This document shows positions 4,459 to 60,918 of a DNA stretch of 64,000 nucleotides, piece after piece (the first letter of the stretch is position 1; each line of letters starts with the position of its first letter). Origin of the DNA: Minisyncoccota bacterium (GTDB taxonomy: Bacteria; Patescibacteriota; Minisyncoccia; Phycocordibacterales; XYD1-FULL-46-19). The translations under genes and the position numbers were made by a program. Under the pieces are notes generated by a model. It made no database searches and was not told where the DNA came from. It was given only the letters and a program-made list of their open reading frames with translations. The DNA lies in the NCBI GenBank assembly GCA_041649495.1, contig JBAZMZ010000001.1, positions 623 through 64,622 on the forward strand, given 5' to 3'.

Positions 4459-4476
4459 GTATAATAGTAAATAGCT

Positions 4477-6960: not shown

Positions 6961-7826
6961 GTTGGGGGGATAATATCATCTATTTTGATACTACCATTAT
7001 TAAACCAGATGTCTGGCGCAATAACAATCTTGTTGGGATTTTCGTTGAGCCAAGCGCCCCACCAAGAGAAACTTGAATTAGCGATAATATTATGTTTACA
7101 CTTACTCATCAAAACTAGTTCCTGGTAATCAGTCAGTTCTTTCTCTTGTTTATTTTCCGAAACATAAGTTACTAGATGGCTATTAAATTTCATATTAGCC
7201 TTAACCCAATCAACATCATCACTAAATACAAAGAAAGCTGGATTCTCAATCTTTGTTTCAATTAACTCAATGGCTTTTTTGTAATAATTTGCCGAACAGA
7301 TTCCTAACCCTTTTAAATTAGTTGTCAAAAGGTAGTCGGTCCTTCGGACGGCAAGCGAGACAGAGTTGGTAGTTGTTATCTGATTCAATAGTTCAGGATT
7401 TGTTTGGTCAAGAGGGGTCTTGAGAGTAAAATCTTTTTGGATGACTTCTTTGATATCAGAAAAGTACTTGAAACTTTGCCAATAGCCGTCTAAATAGATA
7501 TCTTTACCCTGGGCCATCTCTTTTTTTATTCTGCTAATTACCCGAGGTTCCCAGCCGGTGTGGTGAACTCGTAGGATTTTAAATTTGAAACCGCGCCAGG
7601 CTTTGGATGCCAAACCAAGAGAGTATTTATTTTTTTTAATTTCTTGGTGGTTAGCAAAGTTCTCTTCGATAGCAAAAACTTTTAATCCGTAAGCGCGAAA
7701 ATGCTCTCGATCGTAGCCAGTTCGATCTAATTTTAGCCCCGTCTTTTGGGTGACAGCTAATTCTCGTCCCAAAGCATATTGAAACATTTGATTGCCGAGC
7801 CCGCCTTTTAAATTGACGGTAATCAT
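6936..7826 (-). CDS. GT11 alpha-1,2-fucosyltransferase-like glycosyltransferase
   Basis: N-terminal GGLGNQMFQYA signature of the GT11 fucosyltransferases. Confidence 0.75.
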   Translation of the reverse strand: MITVNLKGGLGNQMFQYALGRELAVTQKTGLKLDRTGYDREHFRAYGLKVFAIEENFANHQEIKKNKYSLGLASKAWRGFKFKILRVHHTGWEPRVISRIKKEMAQGKDIYLDGYWQSFKYFSDIKEVIQKDFTLKTPLDQTNPELLNQITTTNSVSLAVRRTDYLLTTNLKGLGICSANYYKKAIELIETKIENPAFFVFSDDVDWVKANMKFNSHLVTYVSENKQEKELTDYQELVLMSKCKHNIIANSSFSWWGAWLNENPNKIVIAPDIWFNNGSIKIDDIIPPTWTKLPRN

Positions 7827-8584
7827 TTTTCCGTCGATATTTTAAAGCTGATAATAATCTCCTCATTTTTATTAAGTACTTTTTTCCAATTTGGTTTTAA
7901 ATCTTGGTGAAAAAAATAATCTCCATTACCCATTATCCTCTGTATTTTAAAGCCGGTCTGCTTGGTAATTAATTCAATTTGCCAATAGGGCAGGGGATTA
8001 ATATGATATTCAAAACAGTCGGGGGTGAACCAGGGAAAATATCCTGTTAACCAAAATTTTAAACGACTTCTCGTTGATAAAATATTTGGCGTACTAATAA
8101 TAAAAAGCCCGTCTGGTTTGAGCATTCTTCTTGCTTGTCGGAAAAATTCCCAGGGATTTTCTAGGTGCTCGATGATTTCTTGGCCGACAATTATATCGAA
8201 GGATTGCTCGAGAAAAGGGTAAGGAAAATGATTCAAATCCCAGATTGAATTTTTTTTGTCAACTTTGGTTGACGCAATATCTACATTAGAGACGTTATAA
8301 CCCAAAAGTTCAAAAATCGTCGAGACCTGGCCAGTTCCGCCCCCTAGATTAAGAAGTTTCTTTTTTTGGTTGTTTATGCTCAACTCTCTCGTGATTGTCT
8401 CTATGACACCGGGTGAGGCATGACAATAAAGGGAATCAACTAAATATCTGCGCCAACCATAGAAGAAACTTCTCTCTTCGTGTCGAAATTGTTTTTTTAA
8501 ATTGACAACTAGATCATCGGTCGGTGCTTCAATGTTTAAAAGGCCTGTTCTCTTAAGCCAATTTTTAATAAGATTATTTTTCAT
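7823..8584 (-). CDS. class I SAM-dependent methyltransferase
   Basis: LLNLGGGTGQ glycine-rich SAM motif followed by an acidic residue and a DIIV motif. Confidence 0.6.
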   Translation of the reverse strand: MKNNLIKNWLKRTGLLNIEAPTDDLVVNLKKQFRHEERSFFYGWRRYLVDSLYCHASPGVIETITRELSINNQKKKLLNLGGGTGQVSTIFELLGYNVSNVDIASTKVDKKNSIWDLNHFPYPFLEQSFDIIVGQEIIEHLENPWEFFRQARRMLKPDGLFIISTPNILSTRSRLKFWLTGYFPWFTPDCFEYHINPLPYWQIELITKQTGFKIQRIMGNGDYFFHQDLKPNWKKVLNKNEEIIISFKISTEK

Positions 8585-9317
8585 GTTGTTTTGTTGCTAT
8601 TATAACATAGTCAAGAGTTAGCCAACGTTTATTGGTTAGCCAGTCAAGGAATAGTGAAATAATTTGAATTGGCCCCAAAATAAAAATAGACAGGGTGATT
8701 TTTAGGATGGTGTTTCTAAAAGCTAAGCTTTCAAAGACAAAGGCGGAAAATATCTGTCCTAAAACACCAAAGATTCCAGTTGTTTGAGTCAAGCTGGAGA
8801 TTTCGAGACCGTTTTGAGTTAGTAATTGTTCTAACCCATATCGAGTAAAACGGTAAAAATCATAAGGAATCTCATGTTCGTTCCAAACAAAGGGTGTCGT
8901 GATAAAAACTTGCCCATCTGTTTTTAGGGTCCGAGCCATTTCGTTTAGTAATTTTGCTGGTTCGGGGGTGTGTTCTAGAACTTGAGTACACAGAATTACT
9001 TCAAATTGATTGTCTGGGAAGGGGATATGCACGCCGTCAAAAAATTTATCAACCGTTTTCTCTTGATCGGTATGTCCACCCCCTTCAATATCTATTCCTT
9101 GGTAAGAAGAAGATAGAAAAAGGTTCTTATACGGCTTATTGCCACAGCCGACATCTAATATTTTAGAATTATGGGGGACTACTCTAGAGAATTTTCTGAT
9201 CTGGCAATAAAGGGCTCTTCGGCTAATAAAATACGGATTTAAAAAAATTGAGTACCAACTGGGTCGAAAAAAGATGGCCTCAATAATCTGCTTCTTGTTT
9301 TTTCTAAGATCGATCAT
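8574..9317 (-). CDS. class I SAM-dependent methyltransferase with a C-terminal TM segment
   Basis: ILDVGCGNKPY motif I and FEVILCTQVLEH motif. Confidence 0.7.
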   Translation of the reverse strand: MIDLRKNKKQIIEAIFFRPSWYSIFLNPYFISRRALYCQIRKFSRVVPHNSKILDVGCGNKPYKNLFLSSSYQGIDIEGGGHTDQEKTVDKFFDGVHIPFPDNQFEVILCTQVLEHTPEPAKLLNEMARTLKTDGQVFITTPFVWNEHEIPYDFYRFTRYGLEQLLTQNGLEISSLTQTTGIFGVLGQIFSAFVFESLAFRNTILKITLSIFILGPIQIISLFLDWLTNKRWLTLDYVIIATKQHEK

Positions 9318-10231
9318 AAGTTTTTGGTTACTATATCTAAGAAGGGGTTATTATATAATAGGTATTTTAATTTCTCCACACGGGTAAACTGACTGAAACC
9401 GTGGTTAAAATTTGGATCAATTTGAGCCACGCAAGTTATTGATTTTCTTATTGCCTCGATATAAGGTCGGTAAAAGGTTTTTCTTTTGGTGGCTGGAATA
9501 AAGTAGCCCTTAGCCTCAACAAATTTATCTTGATTGAGAAGTTTGAAAGCATGAAAATGATAAAAAATTACCTTTGGGGGTATCGAAGTTCGTATATTCC
9601 AGGGAGCTAGGCCAGCTCCAGGGTGTTGGATGACCGATAGGTTGGGGAATCTCTCGGGCCAATCGTTTAAATATAGCTGATCGCCGTAAAGACCATTTTC
9701 TAATCGATCGAAACACCAATCAATTACTTTATTAGCCCACCATTTAACAGCTTCTTGGCCGACCTTGTCATTTTTGAAATAAACAAAACCGACATTAAAA
9801 CGACCAACCTTTTGCGTAAATTCTTGTTGTTTTTTGGGAAAACGGTGCTCAATAATCCCAATTGAATTATTGCCAATTTCGACAAAGATTGGCTCTGGAT
9901 TATCAAAGAAATAGAGATCAGCGTCGAGGTAAGTAATACTTTCAACTTCTTCTTTTTTCAGCATAAAATGGCATAAATTAGCTGTGCAAGTCCACGCATA
10001 TTCGGCTGGGTTGCGAGAGGGTCTGACTCTTAATAGTCGTTCGTCTTCAAACTCAGACATCTTTATCAGCTTTATTTTTGGGAGATCCATCTTGGAAAGC
10101 AAGTCATATGTTTCTTCCTCTAAACAGAGAATCCAGAGAGTAAAATTAGGACAATGCTGCTTAAGTGAAAAATACAAAGCTAGGCCTCGATAAAGATAAT
10201 TCTTGTCAAATAGAGTGCAAAAATTACACAT
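9314..10231 (-). CDS. putative nucleotide-diphospho-sugar transferase (GT8-like, DxD)
   Basis: YLDADLYFF DxD-like motif in a glycan-cluster context. Confidence 0.4.
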   Translation of the reverse strand: MCNFCTLFDKNYLYRGLALYFSLKQHCPNFTLWILCLEEETYDLLSKMDLPKIKLIKMSEFEDERLLRVRPSRNPAEYAWTCTANLCHFMLKKEEVESITYLDADLYFFDNPEPIFVEIGNNSIGIIEHRFPKKQQEFTQKVGRFNVGFVYFKNDKVGQEAVKWWANKVIDWCFDRLENGLYGDQLYLNDWPERFPNLSVIQHPGAGLAPWNIRTSIPPKVIFYHFHAFKLLNQDKFVEAKGYFIPATKRKTFYRPYIEAIRKSITCVAQIDPNFNHGFSQFTRVEKLKYLLYNNPFLDIVTKNL

Positions 10232-11033
10232 GTTTTTTTAGTTTAAACAGGTAGCCCTTAAATTCTCCCCGAAAATTATGGCGCGCAATCTTTCTTTCTG
10301 GAGTTTCAAAATCTATTATCAACTCATATCGGGGGGCCAAAAAGTCTAGTAATTTTTGTTCACTGAAAAACCAACATGGGTAGCTGGCAGAGTAAATTTG
10401 TGGCGGGACTTTTTGGAGAGTAATAAAATCCTTGTTCCGTTTAGTTACACTTGTTCGGTCAAAGATTATAAATTCTAAATTTTTTGACAAAACTTCAGTC
10501 AAAATATCATACGGTTTTTCTATATACTGCAAAGAGCTGGAAAAAACTATTGTTGTTGGGTTAGTTTTTTTGATGCAATCTGAAATATTTTTGTAGAAAT
10601 TAAGTTGTTTATTAGAAAAATTTTCCTGCCCACATTTAACAAAGTTCGGTTGTTCAACAACGTTCCAGTGGATAGACAACAAATGTTTTATAAAAGGAAG
10701 GTGTTGGAAATAAATGCTCCCAAGGGAACCACCAAAATCAATCAGATTTAATCTCTGGCTATTTTGCCCGGCTACAAAGAGGAGGTTTGCTAGTAATGGC
10801 CACCGGGGTTCTTTTTTGTAAAACAAAACGGAATCTCGTTCATAAGTTGCCTCACCGGTCGTGACCTTAAGTAGGGCATTTTTAACTCTAGACAATATCA
10901 ATTTGTCGTTATAGCCGGTACTTTTTAATGCCACTTCAGACCAGTTTTGGTAAGGTCCAAACCAGCCATATCTTTGGCTGAGAATAAACCCCCTGATCTT
11001 TTTTGGGGTAACTTTTTTAAGAAAATTTTTCAT
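10224..11033 (-). CDS. TIGR04325-like methyltransferase of polysaccharide clusters
   Basis: YGWFGPYQNWSEV...IDFGGSLGS resembles the LIC12133/TIGR04325 family. Confidence 0.5.
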   Translation of the reverse strand: MKNFLKKVTPKKIRGFILSQRYGWFGPYQNWSEVALKSTGYNDKLILSRVKNALLKVTTGEATYERDSVLFYKKEPRWPLLANLLFVAGQNSQRLNLIDFGGSLGSIYFQHLPFIKHLLSIHWNVVEQPNFVKCGQENFSNKQLNFYKNISDCIKKTNPTTIVFSSSLQYIEKPYDILTEVLSKNLEFIIFDRTSVTKRNKDFITLQKVPPQIYSASYPCWFFSEQKLLDFLAPRYELIIDFETPERKIARHNFRGEFKGYLFKLKKHV

Positions 11034-11770
11034 ATTATTTTTGCAGCACTGTCAGTTGTTCGATGGCCTTTGGCCCTTTCGAAGTAAGAATTGAATATCT
11101 TAAGGGCATCTTTGGGGGAAATTAAGTTATTCCTAACGCAATACCAATTTAAATAATTTTTCTCATAGACATTTGACCTAAAGGTTGCCCTAGCTTTTTT
11201 CACATTAAGAGCTCCAAGGGCGCTGAGGCGATGATTCCCATCAATAACCAAATATCTTACCTGGTTGTCTGTTTTGATGAGGCGGACTAACTCTATATAG
11301 TTATTATTTTTTTGGGGCTCATAACCGTTTTTTTTGATCAAATAATAGGCTCTTTCTAGCCAAACGAATTCTTCTTCGAGCCTAAAATTCAAGACACCTT
11401 TTGCTGAAAAGTGGGTCATAATGTCTGGGCAGTCGTTAGGGTCATCGAGCCAACAGCGGTCTTTTTCCATAAAAACACTTTTATTGTATTTAATCCATGG
11501 ATAAATCCAGAGGGGGACGTAATTTTCCAAAGTTATCCCTAGTGCTTGCCCTAGGTTTTTGGGTCTGTAATATTTTATAAAATCTATGAATTTTTCTTGT
11601 CGCTTGTCTTTTTCTATACCGTCATGCAGCTCGAGCGTATAGGTTTGATATGGATTATAATCATTGCCCCCATAACGGAAGCCTCCATAATGAACACACT
11701 CGTTTATCGATACTTCAACAGCAAAAGGAGGAATTATTTTTTTTAGGATCGATTTTATGAATTGTGGCAT
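11030..11770 (-). CDS. hypothetical protein with a ParB/sulfiredoxin-like DGxHR motif
   Basis: YLVIDGNHRLSALGAL. Confidence 0.3.
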   Translation of the reverse strand: MPQFIKSILKKIIPPFAVEVSINECVHYGGFRYGGNDYNPYQTYTLELHDGIEKDKRQEKFIDFIKYYRPKNLGQALGITLENYVPLWIYPWIKYNKSVFMEKDRCWLDDPNDCPDIMTHFSAKGVLNFRLEEEFVWLERAYYLIKKNGYEPQKNNNYIELVRLIKTDNQVRYLVIDGNHRLSALGALNVKKARATFRSNVYEKNYLNWYCVRNNLISPKDALKIFNSYFERAKGHRTTDSAAKII

Positions 11771-12435
11771 ACTATGTAAATTCTCTCCCTATTTAAGGGG
11801 TCATCTTTACCTAAAACAAAATTATCTTTGATTTTTAGGTTGTGTATTTTTAATATCTCGCTTATCTCTTCTTTTTTATGAATAAAGTTTTTTATATCTC
11901 CCCAGGTTTTAATCTCATTTTTTCCTAACGCGAGATTCTTAATCTTACGTATTTTTCTTATAAGTCGGGAAGCAAGGGGGAGTTTTTTTTCTTGTCTCGG
12001 TTCAAATGTTTGAATAATTAATTCTTTTCGAAAAATACGACCAAATTCAGAAATCATCTTGTTGAGATCTTTTGAATTTAATAGATGAACTAATCTCCAG
12101 CAGATGACATAATCGATTGAATTGCCAGGAAAAGGCAGGGACGTGACATTGCCCAAGAATAGCTTTATTTTTTCATTATTTTTAAATTTATCTCTTACTT
12201 TTGCTAACATATCCGCAGAGATATCTGCTCCCATGACCGTCATATTTTTTTCCAGGAAGAAATCTACAAACCGACCAGTGCCAATGGGGGCATCAAGAAT
12301 GGTCGTCCCCATATCTAACCGAGAGAAGTAATCTCTTACAAAATCTTGCTCCCTTTCCCAAATCGGTTCGACAACACGGTCCCTCTCGTAATTATCGGCG
12401 ATATCCCCATAATAAGCTTTATTAGCGTTTATCAT
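11755..12435 (-). CDS. class I SAM-dependent methyltransferase
   Basis: ILDAPIGTGRF motif I and IDYVICWRLVHL. Confidence 0.7.
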   Translation of the reverse strand: MINANKAYYGDIADNYERDRVVEPIWEREQDFVRDYFSRLDMGTTILDAPIGTGRFVDFFLEKNMTVMGADISADMLAKVRDKFKNNEKIKLFLGNVTSLPFPGNSIDYVICWRLVHLLNSKDLNKMISEFGRIFRKELIIQTFEPRQEKKLPLASRLIRKIRKIKNLALGKNEIKTWGDIKNFIHKKEEISEILKIHNLKIKDNFVLGKDDPLNRERIYIVCHNS

Positions 12436-12436
12436 T

Positions 12437-13366
12437 TTATTTTAATTTAGAAATTATTCGGCGCCAAATTTTTATTAAAAAAATTACTGGCCATGAATGA
12501 TTAAATTCAGAATGCATGATTGAAAAAATTATCTTATCATATTCTTTATCAACAACAAGGTTGCCATTATTTTTTAGGGGGAAATTAAGCTCTTGTCTTT
12601 CTAGCTTTTCGATTTGGGGCATTAAGGTCTTTGTATGGGTTGCCTCGGGGCCAAAGCCAATATTTGCTATTAAGTTTCTAGAAGGGAAAATAGCCAAACC
12701 ATTATAAAATGTTCTGAAAAAGGCCCATTGATATTCCCATTTTTTCTCTCTAATTCCAATGTTAAACAAATAGCGACGAGCCCAGTATTGTTTATTGTTG
12801 CCAATTTTTTCTTTTATTTTTTTCCTAGTCTCTCGGTCTTTCCATTGTTTCATTTCTGGATCGAGGAGCTCCCATGCTCGACGCCATGTTGCCCATCCCC
12901 AGACACCGCCTAGTGCCGAGAAGTAATAGTCTTGTTGGTCAGCTTTCCATTCCCCAGCCCAATTCATTCCGCTGACCATCATTATTTTGTTGTCATTCTT
13001 GTATTTTTCCAGCATTTGTTCACAGAAAAAGAAGAAAGATTGATTAGGTAAACAATCGTCCTCTATGATAATTGCTCGATCATATTTGGCTAAAATTTGA
13101 TTGATGCCGGAATAGACCCTCTCACTACAACCTAAATTAGTGCTAGAAAAGTCTTTAATAAATTCACAATCCCAGTCAATATCGGCGACTACGGCTTGGG
13201 ACTGTTCACATAACTCTTTTTCTCCGGGTTTATCTGGCCGAGGCCCGTCGGCTACAATATAAAGGTATTTTGGTTTGACTCTCTTGATCTCCTCAAAAAC
13301 TCGGATAGCCCGATCTGGCCGATTGAAGATGACAAATAAAATTGGGGTATTTAAAACCAGGGCCAT
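12437..13366 (-). CDS. putative glycosyltransferase (GnT-I-like EDD motif)
   Basis: PILFVIFNRPD...IIEDDCLP motifs. Confidence 0.45.
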   Translation of the reverse strand: MALVLNTPILFVIFNRPDRAIRVFEEIKRVKPKYLYIVADGPRPDKPGEKELCEQSQAVVADIDWDCEFIKDFSSTNLGCSERVYSGINQILAKYDRAIIIEDDCLPNQSFFFFCEQMLEKYKNDNKIMMVSGMNWAGEWKADQQDYYFSALGGVWGWATWRRAWELLDPEMKQWKDRETRKKIKEKIGNNKQYWARRYLFNIGIREKKWEYQWAFFRTFYNGLAIFPSRNLIANIGFGPEATHTKTLMPQIEKLERQELNFPLKNNGNLVVDKEYDKIIFSIMHSEFNHSWPVIFLIKIWRRIISKLK

Positions 13367-13527
13367 AACTTAATTTTAATTGTAACTTAAAATCTCGCAT
13401 GTTTCAAGCTGAGTTTTGCTCTAAAAATGCTTGATTTTTTGATAGATAAACAAAATTATGCAGACTCTTTATTTGGAAGATTAAAGACATGACAATTAGA
13501 TAATGAATCAATAGTTTGCAATTATCG

Positions 13528-13576
13528 CAAAAAAATATAAGCAAAGAGCCTGGCAATGATTTCCACTGCCAGGCTC
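13528..13576 (-). terminator. rho-independent terminator downstream of the radical SAM gene
   Basis: Perfect 10-bp stem (gagcctggca/tgccaggctc) followed by a U-run on the minus strand. Confidence 0.6.
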
Positions 13577-13635
13577 GAAAAGAACGGGATGCAATTTCCT
13601 CTGCTTCTGCACAGAATGGAAGATGGCAGATCCCC

Positions 13636-15069
13636 TTACCCTATGCTGTGCTCGATGCTTTGTACCACGGTCTGTGGGTAAGGGATACCCAACTCTTCCC
13701 GCACTTTCTGTTCGACTTGGTCTCGCCGGGCGACGACTTCCTCCGCCGACAAGAAGTCGGTGAAGACATTTGCTTGGTATTCCCCGGGGCGTCCTTTGTA
13801 GAAGCTCCCGGAGAACGCTAGCCAATCGATCTCCCGGCTATAAAGTCGGTCGCCATTGGGACGGGTGTAGACCCACACTCCTGCTCTCGTCGGGTCTGGG
13901 ACAGCTTCGTCATGGTAGGACGTTCCTGGGTACACCGTAACGATTGTGGCGTCAAAGTCGTCCACGCCATTTTCAAGCAGCCACTTCTGTGTCGCTTGGA
14001 TCGTTGCCGACGATTCACCTGGGTGGCCAATTGACATCAGGGCCTTGACCTTTAGTTGATGAGCCCGAGCGATTTCCACGCATCGGGTGTTCTCCTCCGC
14101 TGTTGATCGCTTGCTCATGTTCTGGAGCATTCTGTCCGACCCTGACTCAAAACCCGCCAGGATCCAGCGGAAACCGGCTTCGTACATCAGCCCAGCTTGT
14201 TCATTCGTGAAAAGTTGGGACTTCACGAATCCGCGAAGACGGAATTCTGCACCGAGACGCTCTTGTAGTCCGATGATTCCCCTTAGTAATTTGGGGAACA
14301 TCGGGCTCACATTGAGCTCGTCGTCAAAGAACATGAAGCCTTTGACGCCGTAAGTCTGGTGCAATTGCTCTATCTCGGCCAAGATGCTTCCGATGGGGCG
14401 ACTACGCATTCGCCGAAACGAAGGCGCATGACGCCCGCCACAGAATCCACAACCAAACGGGCAGCCGAGTTGCGAGACGAGGCTTAAGGCCTCTTCTCCC
14501 TCGATTCGGTAGTGATAACTACCGATATCGATGAGTTCTCTGTCGGGCCAAGGGAGACGGGCTAGGTCCTCTCTTGTTAAGAACAGGGGGCTTTTGGGAT
14601 CGTCGGCACTGATCAGTTTGGGCGGGTTGGGCCCTAATGCCACGAAGATGGCCTTTTCACCATCCCCGGCGACCAGGACGTCAACCAAGTCCTTTAGCTG
14701 ACGCAGGGCCACTGTCGCTCGGCCGGGAGATTTTTCTCTTCGCGCTGAGGCGTTGATCAGTGTCACGTGAGCTCCACCCAAAATAATCCGGACCGTTGGC
14801 TGTTCGTGGCGAATAATTGCCACGATTTTGGCCACGGCCGGCATCTGTGGTGTTGTGGCCGTGATACCAACGGTCACGGGTTTTGTCTCCCGCAAATACT
14901 CACAGAGGACTTCTTCATAATTGACGGTGCCGGACAGATCCAACACCTCAACCCGAAGACCCTTCTCCTCCATTGCTGCTGCCACCTTTAGTGCCCCCAG
15001 ACTGACGAATACTCGCTGGTCAGACAGGAAAGCGGAAGGGGTCATGATTAGGCACACTTTTTTATCCAA
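13636..15069 (-). CDS. B12-binding domain radical SAM protein (class B radical SAM, putative methyltransferase); distinctly GC-rich
   Basis: CPFGCGFC (CxxxCxxC) cluster after an N-terminal B12-binding-like domain. GC content is far above the flanks. Confidence 0.8.
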   Translation of the reverse strand: MDKKVCLIMTPSAFLSDQRVFVSLGALKVAAAMEEKGLRVEVLDLSGTVNYEEVLCEYLRETKPVTVGITATTPQMPAVAKIVAIIRHEQPTVRIILGGAHVTLINASARREKSPGRATVALRQLKDLVDVLVAGDGEKAIFVALGPNPPKLISADDPKSPLFLTREDLARLPWPDRELIDIGSYHYRIEGEEALSLVSQLGCPFGCGFCGGRHAPSFRRMRSRPIGSILAEIEQLHQTYGVKGFMFFDDELNVSPMFPKLLRGIIGLQERLGAEFRLRGFVKSQLFTNEQAGLMYEAGFRWILAGFESGSDRMLQNMSKRSTAEENTRCVEIARAHQLKVKALMSIGHPGESSATIQATQKWLLENGVDDFDATIVTVYPGTSYHDEAVPDPTRAGVWVYTRPNGDRLYSREIDWLAFSGSFYKGRPGEYQANVFTDFLSAEEVVARRDQVEQKVREELGIPYPQTVVQSIEHSIG

Positions 15070-15134
15070 GACGTTTCTCCTTCTGCTTTCAAGCAGGGTT
15101 GTGTGAATGACAAAGTTTCCTTTTAAAAAATACT

Positions 15135-16127
15135 CTAAATAGAGCTATTTGTCAAATTCAAATTTTTTGTAAATATTTTCTTAAATCGGTGTTTAATCCT
15201 TAAATAATAACCCAAAAGACTATCCCTTGGGACATAAATTGGCGATGGGAACTTAATTTGCAATGGGGGATGTGTTCTCCCAAAGGTTTTTTCGGGGTTA
15301 GGTATTAAAATATCACCTATTTCTATTAGTTCACTCAGTATATTCCTGGTAAAATCGCGACAATTAAATGTACAGATGAAATCAAGAGCTTTTTTGTTAA
15401 AAACATAATAATGTTCAACAAAAATATCCCTCCAATTATAGTTCATTTTACCGTCATTGTACTCTCTCAAATAATAAGATTCATTAAAATTCACACGATG
15501 TAAATACTCCACCTCAGGGCAGGTATAGGCACTCAATCCGGCACATAAAAAGCGCCAAGCAAAGCCCTGAGTGTCAAAACCGTGTAATGTAGGGTACCCT
15601 CCAGTTTTAGCAAAAGCTTCTTTTGTATACATAAAATTGACACAGAGGGGAAGAAAGCCTTTGTTTTTTGAGAGTAAAGATTCAAACGGTATTTTTTTGT
15701 TGAGGTAAGGGGAGGTTTCTATGTGGTGGATATTTTCGATATTTTTACCGCTAAACTTTATTGATCGATGGATGGTTACTCCGTCACATTCTTTTTCTTT
15801 CAAAAATTTTACCATTTTTCCTAATGCTCCTTTGGGTAACAAGTCATCACTGTCCAAACAAAAAATAATATTTCCGGTAGATTTTTGGACGGCAGTATTT
15901 CTTGTTGCTCCGCCACCTAAATTTTTTTCGTGTTGGTAATGGCCAAGATTGGGGTATTTTCTAGCCAATTTCTCAATAACTTCTTGGGTTTTGTCTGTTG
16001 AAGCATCGTCAACCAAGATCAATTCAAATGGAATTGTCAGTCCTTGCTGACAGGCCGAAACCACGGCTTCTTCGAGCGTGTCTTGGCAATTATAACAGGG
16101 GATTATTATAGATAATTTATCGTTCAT
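15135..16127 (-). CDS. family 2 glycosyltransferase
   Basis: LSIIIPCYNCQDTL...LILVDDASTD...DSDD. Confidence 0.8.
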   Translation of the reverse strand: MNDKLSIIIPCYNCQDTLEEAVVSACQQGLTIPFELILVDDASTDKTQEVIEKLARKYPNLGHYQHEKNLGGGATRNTAVQKSTGNIIFCLDSDDLLPKGALGKMVKFLKEKECDGVTIHRSIKFSGKNIENIHHIETSPYLNKKIPFESLLSKNKGFLPLCVNFMYTKEAFAKTGGYPTLHGFDTQGFAWRFLCAGLSAYTCPEVEYLHRVNFNESYYLREYNDGKMNYNWRDIFVEHYYVFNKKALDFICTFNCRDFTRNILSELIEIGDILIPNPEKTFGRTHPPLQIKFPSPIYVPRDSLLGYYLRIKHRFKKIFTKNLNLTNSSI

Positions 16128-16131
16128 CTAG

Positions 16132-17022
16132 TCAATCGTTATTTTTTATCAAATTGATCCAATAGTCCAGGAAAAGAGGTTTAGTATTGGCTTGGGCCAT
16201 TATCTCTGTGTATTTACTAGCTAACTCTGTTTCGGAGAAATTTTTAATTTCTTGCCAGTCATCAACGAGCCAAATAGGCAGCCCTAATTGTGAAAAAGAT
16301 TCCATCATAAATGAGCGTTTCACTATCGGGATGACTCCTAGGTACATCGCCTCCCACATTCTATGAGAATCAATGGCATTACCTGGGGGCGAAGCTACAA
16401 ATTTATAGCCGTTTAATTTCTCTAAATACTGTTTGGCGTTTAGTTTCCCCCTTATTTCGTCTGCAGAGGGGCATTTAATGAGGGCATCATAAGCTGGCTG
16501 TCTTTCCCCTGGATTGGTGGAGATACTGAAACCAAACAGAATACGATTTATTTTATCCCCTCCTTTCCATCGGTTTTTGTCAAAAAGTTTTGTTATTCCA
16601 TTATTATAATAGCTTAAATTCTCTAGTCCGGCGGGAATGGGTGTAATTTGGGGGTGGGAGACAGTAACACTCATCGCGTACCATTTGTTAATCTTTTTGT
16701 CTGCGTATTTCGCCAATTGCTCAGTAACTAGAGTATCTCCGTTATGGGTAATTAATATATAGGGCTTAGTAATATGGGGGTGGACTTCTTGAAAGAATTT
16801 TTCAGCTTGCTCAATGCAAACAAAAATTATCGTGTTTTCTTTTATCTTCCCTAAAACAATTGAATTTAATCCTTTTTCGTATACCATATTTGCAAAAGCC
16901 CTGAAAGAATCACCGCTTATATAGGGGCAACTTGAGGGATGAGGATTAGGCAACAGCTTAATTGCTCGTCGATACAGACCTCGCCTTAATCTAAAGATAA
17001 AATTTTGAATAAGGAGAAACAT
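16132..17022 (-). CDS. hypothetical protein of the glycan cluster (possibly glycosyltransferase-like)
   Basis: Lies in an operon with GT and MT genes; no clear motif. Confidence 0.35.
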   Translation of the reverse strand: MFLLIQNFIFRLRRGLYRRAIKLLPNPHPSSCPYISGDSFRAFANMVYEKGLNSIVLGKIKENTIIFVCIEQAEKFFQEVHPHITKPYILITHNGDTLVTEQLAKYADKKINKWYAMSVTVSHPQITPIPAGLENLSYYNNGITKLFDKNRWKGGDKINRILFGFSISTNPGERQPAYDALIKCPSADEIRGKLNAKQYLEKLNGYKFVASPPGNAIDSHRMWEAMYLGVIPIVKRSFMMESFSQLGLPIWLVDDWQEIKNFSETELASKYTEIMAQANTKPLFLDYWINLIKNND

Positions 17023-17028
17023 AGTGCT

Positions 17029-17790
17029 TTAAGGCTGAGTCGCCTCTTTTGCTTGGTATAAATAATCAACACCATTGATAATTGTAATTAGTTGGTAGTT
17101 GTAATCTAGAAAAGACCCTATTTTTTTTTGTCTTTTCTCGCTATGTATCTCAATAAGTAAAAAATTTGGCTTATACTTCCTAAAGCTTAAGCCTCTCAGA
17201 GCTTCTAGCTCGTAACCCTCGATATCTAGAGTAAGTAGATCTATCGTTCTCATTTTATGACTTAAAAAATACTCATCTAAAAGTGAGTCTAATGTCGAGG
17301 TTGGAACGGTGATTTCTCTCGCGGTTATTTTCTGAGCTTTTTCACCAGCACGAACCCAATCTAAATAGTCAAACGAATCATCTTTGACTATGGTCATGGC
17401 GTTACAGTCAATAAGCGTTAAAACTGGTTTTAGAAAATCACAACTGACCAAAGCTTTTTTAACGATTATCGATCGGGGACGATTTATCTGGCAATATCGG
17501 CTGGCTCGGGTCGGTTCTATTATTATCCCGGTCCAACCCAGGAAACGTTCAAGGTAGTAAGTTGGATCTTGAAAGTAGCCATCATTTCCTCCTCCCACAA
17601 CAAAAAATCCTCCTTTTTTGTTGATATATTTTAACAATTTGTCGTGACCCAAATAAGGTTTAGAAAATTTTTCATCTCCCCACCATTCATATATTTTCCT
17701 TTTAAGTATTGTTAGTTGCGCAAATAGGTAGGGTTTTATTTTTTTTAGTATATTTATCATTGCTTTATGAGTTTTTGCCACTATCGACAC
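17029..17790 (-). CDS. FkbM-family methyltransferase
   Basis: IDLLTLDIEGYELEALRG, typical of Methyltransf_21/FkbM. Confidence 0.65.
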   Translation of the reverse strand: MSIVAKTHKAMINILKKIKPYLFAQLTILKRKIYEWWGDEKFSKPYLGHDKLLKYINKKGGFFVVGGGNDGYFQDPTYYLERFLGWTGIIIEPTRASRYCQINRPRSIIVKKALVSCDFLKPVLTLIDCNAMTIVKDDSFDYLDWVRAGEKAQKITAREITVPTSTLDSLLDEYFLSHKMRTIDLLTLDIEGYELEALRGLSFRKYKPNFLLIEIHSEKRQKKIGSFLDYNYQLITIINGVDYLYQAKEATQP

Positions 17791-18655
17791 TGCTGTTTGT
17801 TCTCCAGAAGCAAATGGGAATTTTATTGTCGGTTCCTACGGAGTATAACAGATTCATCCTGATTTGAAAGTCACGGTCTGAAAAGCGAACAAGACGATCT
17901 TTTTTATTTCTGTAAAGTCCAACCGAAAGAGCTTTTTTCCGCGAAAAGGTTGATCCAGAATGAGTCATGTTCAAACTGCAAAAATCCTCAAAACCTAAGG
18001 CGTCGCTCGGGGTTGTTATCTGTAGGGAGATATCTTTTATCGAAAAATGATCTTCCACCCTTTTTTTACTTGTCTCGAGAAAATTGTCGTTGTCAAAATT
18101 TATATTACCAAACCCTATTAAGGCCAAATCTTTTCGATCCCTGAGCATCCGCAAAGATATTTCTATTGCATCATGCATTAAATAGTCGTCATCGTTGAGG
18201 ATCATCACCACGTCGGTTGTTGCTAACCCGGTCGCCCTGTTTATGCTTAACGCTTGGCCCAAGTTTTTTTCGTTTTTGCGAACAATAAACTCTATTTTCT
18301 CTTCGGGATTATTTTTTTGATAATCTGATACCAAGCCTCGAATAACCTCTGAGGTCTGGTCGCGCGAACAATCATCAATCAAAATTACCTGGTCAGGGAG
18401 ACGAGTCTGGTTAATAATTGATCTAAAAGTCAAGGATAAGAACTTGCTGTGGTTATAACAAGGGACAATAATGGCAATTGTCCTAACTCTGGTTGGTTCA
18501 TTAACTTTCTTTCCCTCGAACTCTTTTTTGAATCTCATCATCTTATTAAGAGGTACTTGACGCTGGCGAATTAGCTCCAAAAACCATTTAGGTAATAATC
18601 CCCGAATAGTGATTTTGGCATTGTATTTAAACATCTCTCGTTGGCTTCTGTTCAT
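17765..18655 (-). CDS. family 2 glycosyltransferase
   Basis: IAIIVPCYNHSKFL...VILIDDCSRD...DDD. Confidence 0.75.
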   Translation of the reverse strand: MNRSQREMFKYNAKITIRGLLPKWFLELIRQRQVPLNKMMRFKKEFEGKKVNEPTRVRTIAIIVPCYNHSKFLSLTFRSIINQTRLPDQVILIDDCSRDQTSEVIRGLVSDYQKNNPEEKIEFIVRKNEKNLGQALSINRATGLATTDVVMILNDDDYLMHDAIEISLRMLRDRKDLALIGFGNINFDNDNFLETSKKRVEDHFSIKDISLQITTPSDALGFEDFCSLNMTHSGSTFSRKKALSVGLYRNKKDRLVRFSDRDFQIRMNLLYSVGTDNKIPICFWRTNSSVDSGKNS

Positions 18656-20199
18656 GGTTTGGAAAAATTTTTGATTCGGAGAATTGCTAAATTAGAAAAC
18701 TTTTTAAAATCTTGCCAATCTTCTTTTTCCACAAAACCCAAGACTTTATAGAGAAGCAGGTAAACAATAACCGCGCCGGGACCCAAGATGGCCAGGGTCG
18801 GGAAGTTGACGATTAAGGGTGAAATTAAAAATTTAGCAACAAAAAAGAAAATAGCCGCAGTCGTGCCAATTCGCCAGATAATTTGGCGATAATATTTGCC
18901 TCGGCCAATTAGGCCCAAATATTTTTTCTCAGCGAAATAAATCATATAAAAGATAGGCAACATTGATAAAAGATAGGCCCAGGCGGCACCGGTGACGCCA
19001 TATTTGGGTAGCAAAAGGAAGAGGAAGAGGGCATTTAGCCCGGCCATAATAGTGTTGAGAATAGAGGAAAATTTTATTTTGCCTAAACCGAAAAAGAAAG
19101 CATTGATGGGCGAAAGCAGGGCAATCATGAAATTTGTCAAAGTTAAGATAACCAAAATGTTGGTGGATTTATTGGCCACGTCGGCATTTATCCAGTAACG
19201 CATGATGGGGTAAGCTAAAAAAATTACAGATAAGGAAATGGCCGAGGCAATAGTTGTGACCAAACGAACAGAACGGATGTAAAAACGCCGAAGTTGTTCT
19301 TGGTTACCCGTACCATTGATGCTGGCCGAAATGGGGAAAATAATCCCAGAGAGGTTGTCGGTTACCCCCGGGATGCGGGCGGCGACATTGCCGGGCAAAC
19401 TATAGTAAGTCAGCTGCGTTGGGCCGATAAAGATTGGGATAATTAGTCGATCTAGGTAGGCAAGGGAAGTACTAGCCGTATTGTTTATTACTGTGGCAAT
19501 TCCAAAACGATAACAATGTCTAATTTCTTCCTTGTCCCAGCCTAATTGGTAATGAGCCAGGGGTAGGATTTGGAGAGCGTATCGACGTCGGACTAAAACA
19601 AAGATGGCAGTTAGGATTAACTGGGAAATAAAAATGGCGATTAATTTATAGCCGAGCAAAACTAAAATCAGAATTGTTAATGGGGAGAGCGTAAGATAAA
19701 CGATGTTAACTTTGGAAGAAATATCATAACGCTGGAGCGCTTCGGGGATAATGTTGTATGAATTATTAATTGAACTGATAAAAAAACTCAGACCAGCAAT
19801 AATAAAGAGGATTAGATAAAACTGTTGGCCAGCGAGACGGTCAGCGAAAAGCCAACGACCCCCCAATGAAAGTAAGATTGTGGTGGTTAGGCCAGAAAGA
19901 CCAATGAGGAGGAAGAGGCTATTGGCTGAACGGAGCAACTTTTTGATTTTTTCAGTTTCCAACTGGGCTGAGTATTCGGCGAGGAATTTCATTACGGCGT
20001 AAGAGATCCCCAAGTCGAGCAAGCCGAGCAAACTAGTGATTGCTCCGATAAAGATGTAGATACCATAATCTTTGGCCCCTAATCTAAGGACAACAATTGG
20101 GGTAATAAGAATCGAAAAAACCATTGGCCAGATAAAAGCCGTAAAACGATAAGAAATATTCTTTAGGGTCTTGTAGGTTAAAGAAGAGGTTTCCATCAT
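18652..20199 (-). CDS. oligosaccharide flippase (Wzx/MOP family), polytopic membrane protein
   Basis: Roughly 12-14 predicted TM helices, 515 aa, lying inside the glycan cluster. Confidence 0.75.
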   Translation of the reverse strand: MMETSSLTYKTLKNISYRFTAFIWPMVFSILITPIVVLRLGAKDYGIYIFIGAITSLLGLLDLGISYAVMKFLAEYSAQLETEKIKKLLRSANSLFLLIGLSGLTTTILLSLGGRWLFADRLAGQQFYLILFIIAGLSFFISSINNSYNIIPEALQRYDISSKVNIVYLTLSPLTILILVLLGYKLIAIFISQLILTAIFVLVRRRYALQILPLAHYQLGWDKEEIRHCYRFGIATVINNTASTSLAYLDRLIIPIFIGPTQLTYYSLPGNVAARIPGVTDNLSGIIFPISASINGTGNQEQLRRFYIRSVRLVTTIASAISLSVIFLAYPIMRYWINADVANKSTNILVILTLTNFMIALLSPINAFFFGLGKIKFSSILNTIMAGLNALFLFLLLPKYGVTGAAWAYLLSMLPIFYMIYFAEKKYLGLIGRGKYYRQIIWRIGTTAAIFFFVAKFLISPLIVNFPTLAILGPGAVIVYLLLYKVLGFVEKEDWQDFKKFSNLAILRIKNFSKP

Positions 20200-20975
20200 G
20201 TAAAGATGACACCGATCCCCCCCCAGTCTCGGGGTGGAGTGGCAATCAATTCCTTAAAGTTTTTCTCCAGCCTAATCTCATTCCAGAAGTGGTCAACCTG
20301 GCATTCGGGACTACTCTTGTGTTGAGCAATGTCATGAAAAGCGATAATTCCACCGATTCTGACCATGGGAGAATAAAATTCGTAATCCTTTTTTACTCCA
20401 GCGTAGGTGTGGTCACCGTCAATAAAGAGGAAATCTATTTTTTCTTCTAAAATTTCTCGCAATCTCTCTTGAGTTCCCTGATGATGGGAATTAGCCCGTA
20501 ACAAATGCAATTTTTGTTTTGGCGTAGCAAATTTTTTGTAAACTTTTGTTCTCCATGCGGGGTAGCCTCCCCCATCTTCCCATGGTAGGTCAAGACTGAC
20601 GATTGTAGCATTTTCTGTTGCAAGACGGGTAAACAGAAAAAGTGTTCCTCCTCTGGCGGTGCCAATTTCTAAAACAGTCTGAGGTTTTAGATCTTCAACA
20701 ATTTTTGTTAGCTCAGTAATTTCCCAACGAACTTGTTTGGGTCTAATTAAGTGTCCCCATTTGTCAAACAAAAAGCTCACAAGCGGTAGGGCCGATGGCT
20801 TCTTTTGGACTTCGCGGGAGATTTTCCATAAAGCGAGGGGGCGCAAAAGAGGCTCGAGTTTTGTCAATAAGGGTTGGACGGAACGGACGAAAAAAAAGAA
20901 TAATTTGCGACAAAATTCCCTACCTCCTTTTTGAGATAAAGTTTCCCACGCTTTTTGATTCAGTGACTTAGCCAT
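20196..20975 (-). CDS. class I SAM-dependent O-methyltransferase (CmcI/Methyltransf_24-like)
   Basis: VLEIGTARGGT...FLFIDGDHTYAGV. Confidence 0.6.
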   Translation of the reverse strand: MAKSLNQKAWETLSQKGGREFCRKLFFFFVRSVQPLLTKLEPLLRPLALWKISREVQKKPSALPLVSFLFDKWGHLIRPKQVRWEITELTKIVEDLKPQTVLEIGTARGGTLFLFTRLATENATIVSLDLPWEDGGGYPAWRTKVYKKFATPKQKLHLLRANSHHQGTQERLREILEEKIDFLFIDGDHTYAGVKKDYEFYSPMVRIGGIIAFHDIAQHKSSPECQVDHFWNEIRLEKNFKELIATPPRDWGGIGVIFT

Positions 20976-21077
20976 TTTAATCGATTTGGGGTGATTAAAA
21001 CCATCTAAATCTTAGCATTATTTGGGCAATTTGCCAAAATGGTTTAAAACAAAGTTTTATGTTATACTGATAAACAT

Positions 21078-23165
21078 ATGACAATTAATAATATCAACAA
21101 ATGGCTCCGATACCTTATTTATACTGGCCTCTTCCTTGTCCCCTTTATTCCGCTTTTTGTCTCAACTTCGATGTTTTTTCCTTTCATTACTGGCAAAAAT
21201 TTCGCTTTTCGGATTATTGTCGAAATCATTTTTGCCCTGTGGGCGATTTTGGTCTTAACCGACAAAACGGCTAGACCCAAATATTCTTGGCTTTTGTGGG
21301 CAATCGTGGCTCTTATTGTCGTTGATGGTTTGGCCACCTTGTTCGGTCTCTATCCTTATCGCAGTTTTTGGTCCAATTATGAGCGTATGGACGGTTATAC
21401 TAATATTTTACATCTGGGGGCTTATTTTCTGGTTTTAATCTCTGTTTTGAAAGATAAAGCCAAATGGTTTTGGCTAGCCAACACCTCTCTTTTGGCCAAT
21501 GTTTATATTGTCGGTTACAGCTTTCTCCAATTGGTTGGGAAAGTGCAAATTCATCAAAGTGGCACTCGGCTTGATGCCTCGCTTGGTAATTCAGCTTATT
21601 TAGCTGTTTATGTGCTCTTTCATATCTTCATCGCTGGCTATCTATTGCTAGCACAATGGAGCAAAAATAAAATATTGTCAACTTTTTACATTATAATGAT
21701 GGTTGCTGACACTATTATCTTGTATTACACGGCGACTCGTGGAGCGATTTTGGGTTTAATCGGTGGGGTCTTGGTGGTTGGTTTGTTGTTGGCTATTTTG
21801 AGTCGGGGCCAGACGCGAAAAATTTCGGGCCTTATTATCGCGCTGGTTATTTTGCTTGTGGCTGGTTTTTGGTCGGTGAAAGGTACCGATTTTGTCAAAA
21901 ATAATCAGGTTCTGACGCGTTTTGCCACCTTGTCTTTGTCGGAGGGGACGGCCCAATCTCGTTTTTTGATTTGGCAGATGAGCTGGCAAGGTTTTCAAGA
22001 ACATCCGGTTTTGGGTTGGGGTCCAGAAAATTACACGATGGTTTTTAGTAAATATTATAATCCTAAAATGTGGGGCAACGAGCCTTGGTTTGATCGGTCA
22101 CACAATATTTTCTTCGATTGGCTGATTAACGCTGGTGCGCTCGGACTTCTTGCTTATCTGTCAATTTATGGGACCCTTCTTTATTATCTTTGGTTTGGTC
22201 GGCGAGGAAAATCAAATTCGGTTATTGATACAATTAGTGGTAAAAGTTTATTAACCGGTCTTTTGGCCGCTTACTTTTTCCACAATATTTTTGTTTTTGA
22301 CAACTTAGTTAGTTACATTTTATTTTTCTCACTGGTCGCTTTTATTCATTTCGAAATGACGGAGGAAAAAGGGGACGAAATTTTGAAAGTTAAGAATAAT
22401 TATCAGGCCAATAAAAAAACGCTTAGCAATTATAACGCCAGTTTAATTGCTCCCGTTGCCTCGGTTGTTATCATTGTGGCCATGGGCTCGATTATTTACT
22501 TTGCCAATCTTAAACCAATTGAGGCGTCAACTTCTTTGATTAAAGCTTTATCGTCTAATCAGGCGGGGGTAACCGGTAATTTGGAGTATTACAAAAAAGT
22601 TTTTACGCTGGACACTTTTGGTTCGGGCGAAGCGCGGGAGCAATTGGTGACAAAAACCCTTAACGTCTTAAATGGTGCTAAAGTCTCTAATGATTTGAAG
22701 AATCAATTTGTTCAATTAATCGATGGGCAAATAAAAGTTCAGTTAGCGCAATTTGACCAAGACGCGCGGGCCCTGTCATTTTTTGGTTCTTATTTTACGG
22801 CGACGGGTCGAGTTGATGAAGGTTTAGCTTTATTACAAAAAGCGCATGAGCTATCACCCAAGAAACAACAAATCACTTTTGCTCTTATCTCAGCTTATGT
22901 GCAAAAGCAGGACGCGACGAATGCGATTAAATTAGCGCAAGAAGCTTATGAGCTTGATCCGACTTATCCCGAAGCGCGAAAAATTTATGCTTTAATTCTC
23001 TTAATGACCAGTCAAAACAAATTGGCTCAAGAAATTTTAGCGCCGATCAAAAATTCGGCCAACTATTATAATGACGATCGCTTCATTAATCTTTACCAAC
23101 AAGCGGGCGATCAAAAATCGCTTCAAGAGATAAATTCTTTGCGCGCGGCTGCAAACAAAAAATAA
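21078..23165 (+). CDS. O-antigen ligase/polymerase-like polytopic membrane protein with a C-terminal TPR domain
   Basis: Multi-TM N-terminal half with a Wzy_C-like loop; C-terminal repeats such as LSFFGSYFTATGRVDEGLALLQKAHELSP. Confidence 0.7.
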   Translation: MTINNINKWLRYLIYTGLFLVPFIPLFVSTSMFFPFITGKNFAFRIIVEIIFALWAILVLTDKTARPKYSWLLWAIVALIVVDGLATLFGLYPYRSFWSNYERMDGYTNILHLGAYFLVLISVLKDKAKWFWLANTSLLANVYIVGYSFLQLVGKVQIHQSGTRLDASLGNSAYLAVYVLFHIFIAGYLLLAQWSKNKILSTFYIIMMVADTIILYYTATRGAILGLIGGVLVVGLLLAILSRGQTRKISGLIIALVILLVAGFWSVKGTDFVKNNQVLTRFATLSLSEGTAQSRFLIWQMSWQGFQEHPVLGWGPENYTMVFSKYYNPKMWGNEPWFDRSHNIFFDWLINAGALGLLAYLSIYGTLLYYLWFGRRGKSNSVIDTISGKSLLTGLLAAYFFHNIFVFDNLVSYILFFSLVAFIHFEMTEEKGDEILKVKNNYQANKKTLSNYNASLIAPVASVVIIVAMGSIIYFANLKPIEASTSLIKALSSNQAGVTGNLEYYKKVFTLDTFGSGEAREQLVTKTLNVLNGAKVSNDLKNQFVQLIDGQIKVQLAQFDQDARALSFFGSYFTATGRVDEGLALLQKAHELSPKKQQITFALISAYVQKQDATNAIKLAQEAYELDPTYPEARKIYALILLMTSQNKLAQEILAPIKNSANYYNDDRFINLYQQAGDQKSLQEINSLRAAANKK

Positions 23166-28709: not shown

Positions 28710-28866
28710 CTTAAATTTTCTGGTAGAGATGGAGGTAGAAAATAACAATTGTTCTTTGTAAAGGACAATTTTGGGATATAGGTAGAGAGTCTCGGTTACT
28801 GTGTGATCGAGATGGTTGATAAAGGTGTGTCAGATGCGAGGTTCTCTCGCAGAAAGAAGGTTCGTC

Positions 28867-60898: not shown

Positions 60899-60918
60899 GA
60901 TAGTATGTAGTATATAGT

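Follow-up and report, generated by a model that had tools for sequence, protein, structure and literature searches.

Genomic context of the radical SAM gene

A single GC-rich gene, coding for a radical SAM protein that has a B12-binding-type domain at its N-terminus, was analyzed in a 64,000-nt stretch of contig JBAZMZ010000001.1 (GenBank assembly GCA_041649495.1), hereafter called the window. The host is a Paceibacterota bacterium, a member of the candidate phyla radiation (CPR), and the gene lies in its surface-glycan biosynthesis locus with one operon on either side. The original prediction for this region had described a horizontally acquired module dropped into the glycan operon. Our results point to a different history: taken as a whole, the best explanation is that the gene is probably an old resident, inherited with the locus, and not a recent import. 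The features of the region, all on the minus strand, are listed below.

15135..16127: family-2 glycosyltransferase (GT2), last gene of the upstream operon (Pfam Glycos_transf_2, 8e-35); conserved left neighbour
15127..15155: predicted sigma-70-like promoter of the radical SAM gene (TTGACA, 17 nt, TATTTT), 10/12 matches in the promoter scan
15077..15080: predicted ribosome binding site (RBS) GGAG, 7 nt upstream of the TTG, read from the sequence; an AGGAG-like site occurs in the orthologs
13636..15069: radical SAM gene with N-terminal B12-binding-type domain, 477 aa, TTG start at 15069, TAA stop at 13638-13636, identified by Pfam, the CPFGCGFC motif and the family alignment
13534..13635: in-frame continuation past the TAA, relic of the original C-terminus, still encoding G-D-L-P-S-S-I-L-C-R-S
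13546..13576: predicted intrinsic-terminator hairpin, stem of 13-14 bp with 8 G-C pairs and a T-rich tail to ~13530, from terminator scan and folding
13379..13407: promoter-like site of the downstream operon (TTGAAA, 17 nt, TACAAT) from the promoter scan; the operon begins with the 309-aa gene at 13366
12437..13366: 309-aa putative glycosyltransferase with faint GNT-I/GT-A similarity (Pfam GNT-I, E 0.001, below cut-off); conserved right neighbour

According to the family alignment, the start of the radical SAM gene is TTG 15069 and not ATG 15045. The TTG was taken as the true start because it restores the N-terminal family motif KxVCLIxPPS and is preceded by GGAG at a distance of 7 nt. The predicted promoter lies partly inside the last codons of the upstream GT2 gene. 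The hairpin at 13576-13546(-) folds with -25.5 kcal/mol (z -5.9), and none of 200 shuffled sequences folded equally well; a stable GC-rich hairpin, a U-rich tract and a position 3' of the stop codon, all read from the sequence, are the parts expected of an intrinsic terminator. The private terminator of the original prediction was in this way supported, and so were the spacers on both sides of the gene. The upstream spacer (15070-15134) measures 65 nt and the downstream one (13367-13635) 269 nt, whereas the neighbouring genes overlap or are separated by 6 nt at most. The island would correspond to one complete, separately transcribed gene, with promoter, RBS, 477-codon open reading frame (ORF) and intrinsic terminator.

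Three small ORFs overlap the island, one or more on each strand (13508-13825(-), 13516-13821(+) and 14087-14353(+)). The original prediction had already called such ORFs spurious, and they were rejected as genes here: they lie inside or across a well-supported coding sequence, the synonymous sites of which are unconstrained. No Rfam riboswitch or other RNA element was found in the spacers; one sub-threshold small RNA match (E 0.37) fell within the coding sequence. There is no tRNA gene near the island, the only one of the window being located at 47157.

The window copy ends at a premature stop. Its translation reads ..EHSIG(stop)GDLPSSILCRS.., and all 24 aligned homologs end in ..EHSMGQxxLPxxILRSS. 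The TAA at 13638-13636 stands in place of a conserved Gln codon (CAA to TAA) and is present in both assemblies of this organism. The frame after the TAA is open through the terminator hairpin to 13534. The stop must be recent, since the motif downstream of it is intact.

Composition and codon usage

The mean GC content of the window is 43.9%. The 1-kb profile showed 55.2% at 14001-15000 and 35-39% on either side. The GC-rich island of the original prediction was confirmed with 200-nt windows, in which GC was 0.505-0.59 over 13600-15099, 0.325-0.33 at 13300-13599 and 0.32-0.36 at 15000-15399. The switch coincides with the borders of a single ORF, the radical SAM gene.

The gene (13636-15069(-)) has a GC of 0.55 and a GC at third codon positions (GC3) of 0.61. 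The corresponding values were GC 0.35-0.39 for its immediate neighbours, GC 0.35-0.43 and GC3 0.31-0.46 for the 15 other genes of the glycan cluster, and GC ~0.46 and GC3 0.40-0.53 for the core genes of the window. Core codon usage applied to the amino acids of the radical SAM protein gave an expected GC3 of 0.48, so that the observed value is in excess by 0.13. For two-fold pyrimidine-ending codons, C/(C+T) was 0.71 in the radical SAM gene and 0.19-0.54 in the other 51 ORFs, and the codon usage of the gene was the most extreme among the 52 genes of the window. Though encoded on the minus strand, the gene does not show the excess of C over G at four-fold sites found in the other minus-strand genes.

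C/(C+T) at two-fold pyrimidine-ending codons was 0.24, 0.30 and 0.45, respectively, in the native highly expressed genes coding for L25, GAPDH and EF-Ts. A resemblance to such genes, which the original prediction had named as an argument against foreign origin, was not found.

The glycan locus (6157-23165) is AT-richer than the core (GC 0.35-0.43 versus ~0.46), and its four-fold codons are more often A-ending (0.27 versus 0.11 in the core) and less often G-ending (0.13 versus 0.30). As the locus is itself atypical, the radical SAM gene is an island inside an atypical locus. Core genes avoid A at four-fold sites (0.04-0.16; for instance 39504-40556, 52557-54398, 57665-60937 (-)). In minus-strand core genes C is far more frequent than G at these sites (0.42-0.54 against 0.11-0.20), which agrees with a cumulative GC skew that rises steadily along the window.

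Syntenic orthologs in related contigs

An ortholog of the radical SAM gene was found in the same slot in 6/6 related contigs, which come from different samples (L002, L084, L086, L087, L088 and L089). NCBI gives the name Paceibacterota to two matches in this clade, and the remaining contigs were grouped with these two on account of the shared locus. The common gene order is SecA / Wzy_C-TPR / (CTP-transferase) / flippase ... GT2 - radical SAM - ~305-aa protein ... GT11 - GT2 / TrwB-like / DUF4015 / Mur ligases. The radical SAM proteins were 58-63% identical to that of the window, which is inside the span obtained for the other genes of the cluster (37-76%); the flanking TrwB-like protein reached 71-85%. 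In L002, L084, L087 and L088 the radical SAM gene is immediately preceded by an ortholog of the upstream GT2 (50-75% identity), and in L084, L086, L087, L088 and L089 it is immediately followed by an ortholog of the 309-aa protein (39-72% identity).

The regulatory layout was common to all seven loci (7/7): a TTGAC[AT] -35 box and a Shine-Dalgarno sequence, the gene, a GC hairpin followed by a T-run, and a TTGAAA-17-TAnAnT promoter-like site ahead of the downstream operon. The promoter sequence of the radical SAM gene is near-identical between the window and L002 and extends into the last part of the preceding GT2 gene. At L002 ~9945-10000, the ortholog (P0004) was called ~19 codons short; an upstream in-frame GTG restores RVCLIIPPS.

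Because the gene is orthologous and syntenic with copies on six related contigs, we consider that it was not dropped in recently. Syntenic orthologs in relatives were what the original prediction had itself proposed as counter-evidence, and they were obtained six times. The claim of a horizontally acquired module dropped into the operon stands as far as composition is concerned, which is foreign to both cluster and core; the recent insertion that it implied does not agree with six syntenic orthologs and a lack of mobility signs. A composition unlike that of native highly expressed genes, together with syntenic orthologs, indicates that the anomaly is real but old.

The TrwB/TraG-like coupling ATPase gene (4477-6180 (+)) borders the glycan locus in the window, where it is 7.5 kb from the radical SAM gene, and in all six relatives. 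A putative DUF4015 glycoside hydrolase gene (3256-4458 (+)) also borders the locus and was seen in the four relatives whose fetched flanks reach there. These two genes are a conserved frame of the locus, not a mobility module. The operons flanking the radical SAM gene were found shuffled among the relatives (window 6157-20975 compared with L084, L087, L088 and L089): the downstream operon of the window equals that of L087 gene for gene, the upstream operon resembles those of L084 and L088, and the radical SAM gene is located at the junction.

Distribution and phylogeny of the family

A search of 5.8 billion proteins yielded >4,600 matches, of which the best non-self ones were 59-62% identical; the top match (62%) was a syntenic copy. 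A metagenome scan for closer relatives, with which substitutions could be polarised, returned the same lineages only, and these were at most 62% identical to the window gene. Among the GTDB species representatives, 421 of ~186,000 carry a family member. The hosts include Elusimicrobiota, Nitrospirota, Planctomycetota, Acidobacteriota, Omnitrophota and several CPR lineages. The family is highly conserved, members from different phyla sharing 55-60% identity.

The neighbours of the family were surveyed at 25 loci from other phyla and other CPR lineages, taking the three nearest ORFs per side. Among the 132 neighbours, GT2 (15), GT1/GT4 (13), GDP-mannose dehydratase/epimerase (5) and FkbM methyltransferases (5) were enriched, which makes the association with glycan synthesis a general one.

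In 80 family loci the GC of the gene followed that of its flanks (r = 0.94, slope 0.77), and in low-GC hosts outside the seven lineages the genes had GC 0.37-0.44 and GC3 0.28-0.46. The protein therefore does not require high GC. An explanation of the island by a high GC intrinsic to the family was rejected on the basis of this correlation and of the values down to 0.37.

In a bootstrapped neighbour-joining tree the seven syntenic copies and a Geobacteraceae-labelled group formed a clade (100/100), with the window and L002 copies as sisters (86); the Geobacteraceae-labelled group was either sister to the seven copies or nested among them. The part of the tree with the seven copies is star-like, with long tips. 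Other CPR copies (Saccharibacteria, Falkowbacteria, Ryanbacteria and others) branch elsewhere, so that CPR copies occupy at least 4 separate places, a scatter that implies past transfers of the family from phylum to phylum. For the gene of this Paceibacterota lineage an ancient horizontal origin is likely, since the family is patchy and its CPR copies are polyphyletic.

The Geobacteraceae-labelled group comprises metagenome-assembled genomes (MAGs) and a 4.2-Mb chromosome (L005, L006 and L007). Its genes are AT-richer than their flanks (GC 0.43 versus 0.46-0.48; GC3 0.35-0.39), which could be due to transfer out of a low-GC lineage. No GC-rich donor adjoins the seven-copy clade in the tree. 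The expectation that the best matches would come from high-GC phyla was not borne out: they were the syntenic copies, followed by this group with genes AT-richer than their hosts.

Maintained composition or fading relic

The six orthologs are also GC islands, with GC 0.49-0.54 and GC3 0.53-0.60, against GC 0.32-0.48 for their neighbours; with the window copy included, the ranges are 0.49-0.55 and 0.53-0.61. C/(C+T) was 0.53-0.64 in the six orthologs and 0.53-0.71 in all seven copies, most neighbours having ~0.2-0.45 and those of L087 0.37-0.60. When gene GC was regressed on flank GC for 68 loci from outside the CPR (residual standard deviation 0.024), the seven copies lay 2.8 to 5.5 residual standard deviations above the line, which is thinly populated below a flank GC of 0.43.

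At conserved residues, four-fold sites of the orthologs were identical in a fraction of 0.28-0.36, compared with 0.25-0.27 if randomised. In the 63 four-fold columns common to the seven copies, GC per column was near binomial and GC at four-fold sites was 0.52-0.67 per lineage. Changes from the majority base in these columns numbered 33 from GC to AT and 43 from AT to GC, although parsimony is unreliable at such divergence.

A stable composition specific to this gene is more likely than the fading signature of a donor. Since the composition persists although the synonymous sites of the orthologs are nearly randomised, a gene-specific force would hold it. Tentatively, the GC excess may be actively maintained, the gene having its own equilibrium (GC3 ~0.55-0.6 and C-ending two-fold codons) in a hypervariable AT-rich glycan locus. 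This could be due to selection on codon usage or on the mRNA, the stand-alone transcript coding for a slow radical enzyme. Alternatively, it could be due to GC-biased repair or gene conversion, if the gene acts as a conserved recombination anchor between two shuffling half-clusters.

Several points weigh against the explanation favoured here as a whole. Promoter, terminator and enzyme activity are predictions made from sequence. The regression has few loci below a flank GC of 0.43, and the near-saturation argument relies on 63-148 sites. Translational selection of the kind acting on highly expressed genes was rejected for now, given the values for L25, GAPDH and EF-Ts (0.24/0.30/0.45 versus 0.71). 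Sliding-window identity to the six orthologs revealed no intragenic mosaic and no switch of nearest relative, as recombination-driven GC might have left. In L087 the whole cluster leans to C-ending codons, a hint that the cluster may have its home in some GC-richer, as yet unsampled lineage of the Paceibacterota. If a donor with GC3 >=0.9 contributed the gene shortly before the seven lineages separated, ~0.55-0.6 could still be left today. Finally, the window copy, without its conserved C-terminal motif, may be impaired.

A competing explanation, rather unlikely, is that the common ancestor of these Paceibacterota received the gene long ago from a very GC-rich donor and that amelioration is still incomplete, so that the GC excess would be a fading relic. 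The patchy family, with CPR copies in at least four places of the tree, agrees with it, and so does a codon usage unlike that of both core and cluster genes. GC-rich donors do exist, many members in Elusimicrobiota and other hosts having GC3 0.85-0.95, and four-fold identity is slightly above random, which shows that saturation is incomplete. However, under a simple decay model this residual synonymous identity would imply that at least ~two thirds of any initial excess was lost in each lineage, and an ancestral GC3 of ~0.95 or more would be needed. The drift towards AT expected of a relic is not seen in the 33 versus 43 changes, and the seven lineages keep GC3 in a narrow band (0.53-0.61) though that of their neighbours ranges over 0.27-0.54. 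In addition, the nearest relatives outside the Paceibacterota, those labelled Geobacteraceae, have AT-rich genes, and copies in other low-GC hosts ameliorated to the low GC3 given above.

Less likely readings: replacement, recent insertion and assembly chimera

Repeated xenologous replacement in the same slot, with the copy of each lineage imported separately from a GC-richer pool, is improbable. It would fit the star-like tree with long tips, the variable gene content of these mosaic glycan loci among the seven lineages, and the stronger divergence of the radical SAM gene compared with its flanks (window versus L084: 62% for the radical SAM protein, 75% for GT2 and 69% for the 309-aa protein). 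However, the seven copies and the Geobacteraceae-labelled group form one clade at 100%, so the pool would be the clade itself and the GC excess would be left unexplained. A closer allele is absent from the databases searched, no segment of the gene is markedly nearer to any relative, and the upstream promoter sequence is conserved between the window and L002.

Still less probable is that this organism alone has recently received a foreign radical SAM cassette in its glycan operon by horizontal transfer. Such an event would account for the sharp GC borders, the foreign codon usage, the private terminator and the spacers. A second assembly of the same organism also breaks inside the gene: GenBank contig JBAZGY010000026 (L001; GCA_041652655.1), from a Candidatus Paceibacterota MAG, is 99.99% identical to window 3636-14627, spans the 3' junction of the island and ends inside it at 14627. 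This break suggests a drop of coverage or strain variation at the radical SAM gene. A recent insertion is contradicted by the orthologs of six relatives, which occupy the same slot and share the regulatory layout. In addition, the best non-self match among the 5.8 billion proteins is only 62% identical and is a syntenic copy.

Signs of mobility were also missing. Direct or inverted repeats at the island borders were short, imperfect and at chance level, none of them meaningful. Neither an integrase or transposase gene nor a tRNA target was found at the island, and searches of plasmids and phages gave no homolog of the radical SAM gene at E <= 1e-20. Of the features usually expected of a recent island, atypical composition was present; an empty syntenic site, mobility signatures and distant homologs of matching composition were not. 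The gene resembles classical compositional islands in its sharp GC borders and atypical codon usage, and differs from them in being equally atypical in six syntenic relatives, with nearly randomised synonymous sites and without mobility signatures.

An assembly chimera, with a GC-rich piece from a different organism built into the contig, can be practically dismissed: the contig of the same organism does end within the island at 14627, but it crosses the 3' junction at 99.99% identity, six independent assemblies from other samples have the same gene in the same place, and conservation in L002 extends to the promoter that overlaps the upstream gene.

Islands of GC and codon usage are routinely read as recent horizontal transfer. 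Here the island is a conserved syntenic ortholog in seven lineages, and composition alone would mislead, despite the sharp borders, private promoter and private terminator. If the GC excess is indeed maintained, nature would provide here a clean example of a compositional island unrelated to recent transfer. The gene lends itself to testing whether a single bacterial gene can be kept off the composition of its genome by selection or biased conversion.

Domains, fold and likely chemistry of the protein

Pfam detected a B12-binding domain (PF02310) at residues 23-120 (2.7e-14; 53.5 bits, cut-off 32.1) and a Radical_SAM domain (PF04055) at residues 200-364 (2.5e-21; 77 bits, cut-off 29.5). The CxxxCxxC motif, C203-P-F-G-C207-G-F-C210, is invariant across the family. 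An AlphaFold (AF2) model built from 25 sequences reached pLDDT 88 and pTM 0.88. The motif, which in the superfamily binds the [4Fe-4S] cluster, and the partial TIM barrel, modelled with high confidence, place the protein among radical SAM enzymes; an N-terminal Rossmann-type B12-binding domain is that expected of class B enzymes, a label given here by domain content. The window protein keeps 123/127 near-invariant positions of the family, and decay of the gene body was rejected on that account.

Foldseek matched the model to AprD4, TsrM, MgmA/QCMT, TokK, OxsB and CysS in the PDB (E 1e-12 to 5e-18), with AprD4 (6FD2) at the top (TM 0.67-0.69, E 5e-18). These matches, the Pfam domains and the AF2 model uphold the B12-binding-type radical SAM protein of the original prediction. 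By sequence, the best solved relative was 9CCB (1.9e-15), identified as QCMT in a 2026 review (PMC12931638), and AprD4 matched with E 2e-13. All 19 NCBIfam matches were far below their cut-offs, the best being the PhpK family (117 bits versus 600), and these models assigned the protein to no characterised class B subfamily (PhpK, BchE, HpnJ/R, MgmA, TsrM, BzaD and others).

The class B enzymes TsrM (6WTE), MgmA/QCMT (9CCB), TokK (7KDY), OxsB (5UL4) and CysS (9N1D) have the same order of parts, in that a Rossmann B12-type domain precedes the radical SAM barrel and its CxxxCxxC. Matches of the predicted fold to these five had E 1e-12 to 1e-17 and TMq 0.52-0.67, although identity was only 14-21%. 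The window family differs from them in its own C-terminal motif, EHSMGQxxLPxxILR, and in location: the window gene lies in cell-surface glycan loci, and these enzymes belong to pathways for antibiotics, for cofactors or for the modification of methyl-coenzyme M reductase (MCR).

GenK/GenD1 and Fom3-type enzymes, class B enzymes of natural-product pathways of the kind that the original prediction proposed for comparison, are radical SAM enzymes with a B12 domain that methylate an unactivated carbon of a sugar or of a small hydroxyalkyl group. The likeness to the window enzyme would be one of concept: they were not among the significant named matches in NCBIfam, PDB sequence or Foldseek searches, and their context is an antibiotic cluster, whereas that of the window gene is a Wzx/Wzy-type surface-glycan locus.

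We infer that the protein alters a sugar of the glycan, or of a glycan precursor, by radical chemistry. Cobalamin-dependent C-methylation of a sugar would be the most likely reaction, followed by an AprD4-like dehydration or deoxygenation. The class B sugar enzyme of the original prediction is reasonable as regards domains and a glycan-cluster context found across phyla. Its cofactor is less secure, the enzyme with the closest fold, AprD4, having a Rossmann-like domain that binds no cobalamin (PMC12931638). For this reason cobalamin dependence of the window protein would be presumptive, a further point against the interpretation favoured here.

A cobalamin-independent, AprD4-like dehydratase or another non-methylating enzyme acting on a glycan sugar, such as an epimerase or ring modifier, is possible but has less than an even chance. 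AprD4, a sugar 1,2-diol dehydratase of apramycin biosynthesis, resembles the window protein in its sugar-ring substrate, its length (~450 aa) and its Rossmann-like N-domain; it is the best structural match and was found by sequence as well, in the PDB and in NCBIfam (67 bits). The glycan cluster already has at least 6 ordinary S-adenosylmethionine-dependent methyltransferases. CPR bacteria are, in general, not expected to make cobalamin. However, the B12-binding match is over its Pfam cut-off, the best NCBIfam similarity is to methylating class B enzymes of the PhpK family, TsrM, MgmA and TokK nearly equal AprD4 in structural match, and the AprD4 model NF033070 scored 67.5 bits against a cut-off of 500. 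Identity to AprD4 is 19%, and its partner reductase AprD3 has no conserved counterpart among the neighbours in the seven loci.

A literature search on B12 radical SAM enzymes together with polysaccharide, O-antigen or CPR bacteria found no characterised member of the family. This is a very large radical SAM/B12-type family in surface-glycan clusters, from Elusimicrobiota and Nitrospirota to CPR bacteria, and its reaction, once identified, would bring a radical step into the biosynthesis of cell-envelope glycans. The question is also raised whether ultra-small CPR symbionts rely on scavenged cobalamin for building their surface.

Other GC-rich genes

A second GC-rich gene of the window, at 28816-30243 (+), has GC 0.58 and GC3 0.65, which is 0.13 over the core expectation; its product is lipoprotein-like and contains two PASTA domains as well as a (GE)n linker. 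The gene that follows, at 30399-31007 (+), with PKD/fn3 domains, has GC 0.51 and an unusually high GC at second codon positions (0.56). In L089, an extra GC-rich gene at 8721-9581 (-), with no Pfam match on record and absent from the window, lies between the TrwB-like gene and DUF4015; it codes for 286 aa and has GC 0.545 and GC3 0.65.

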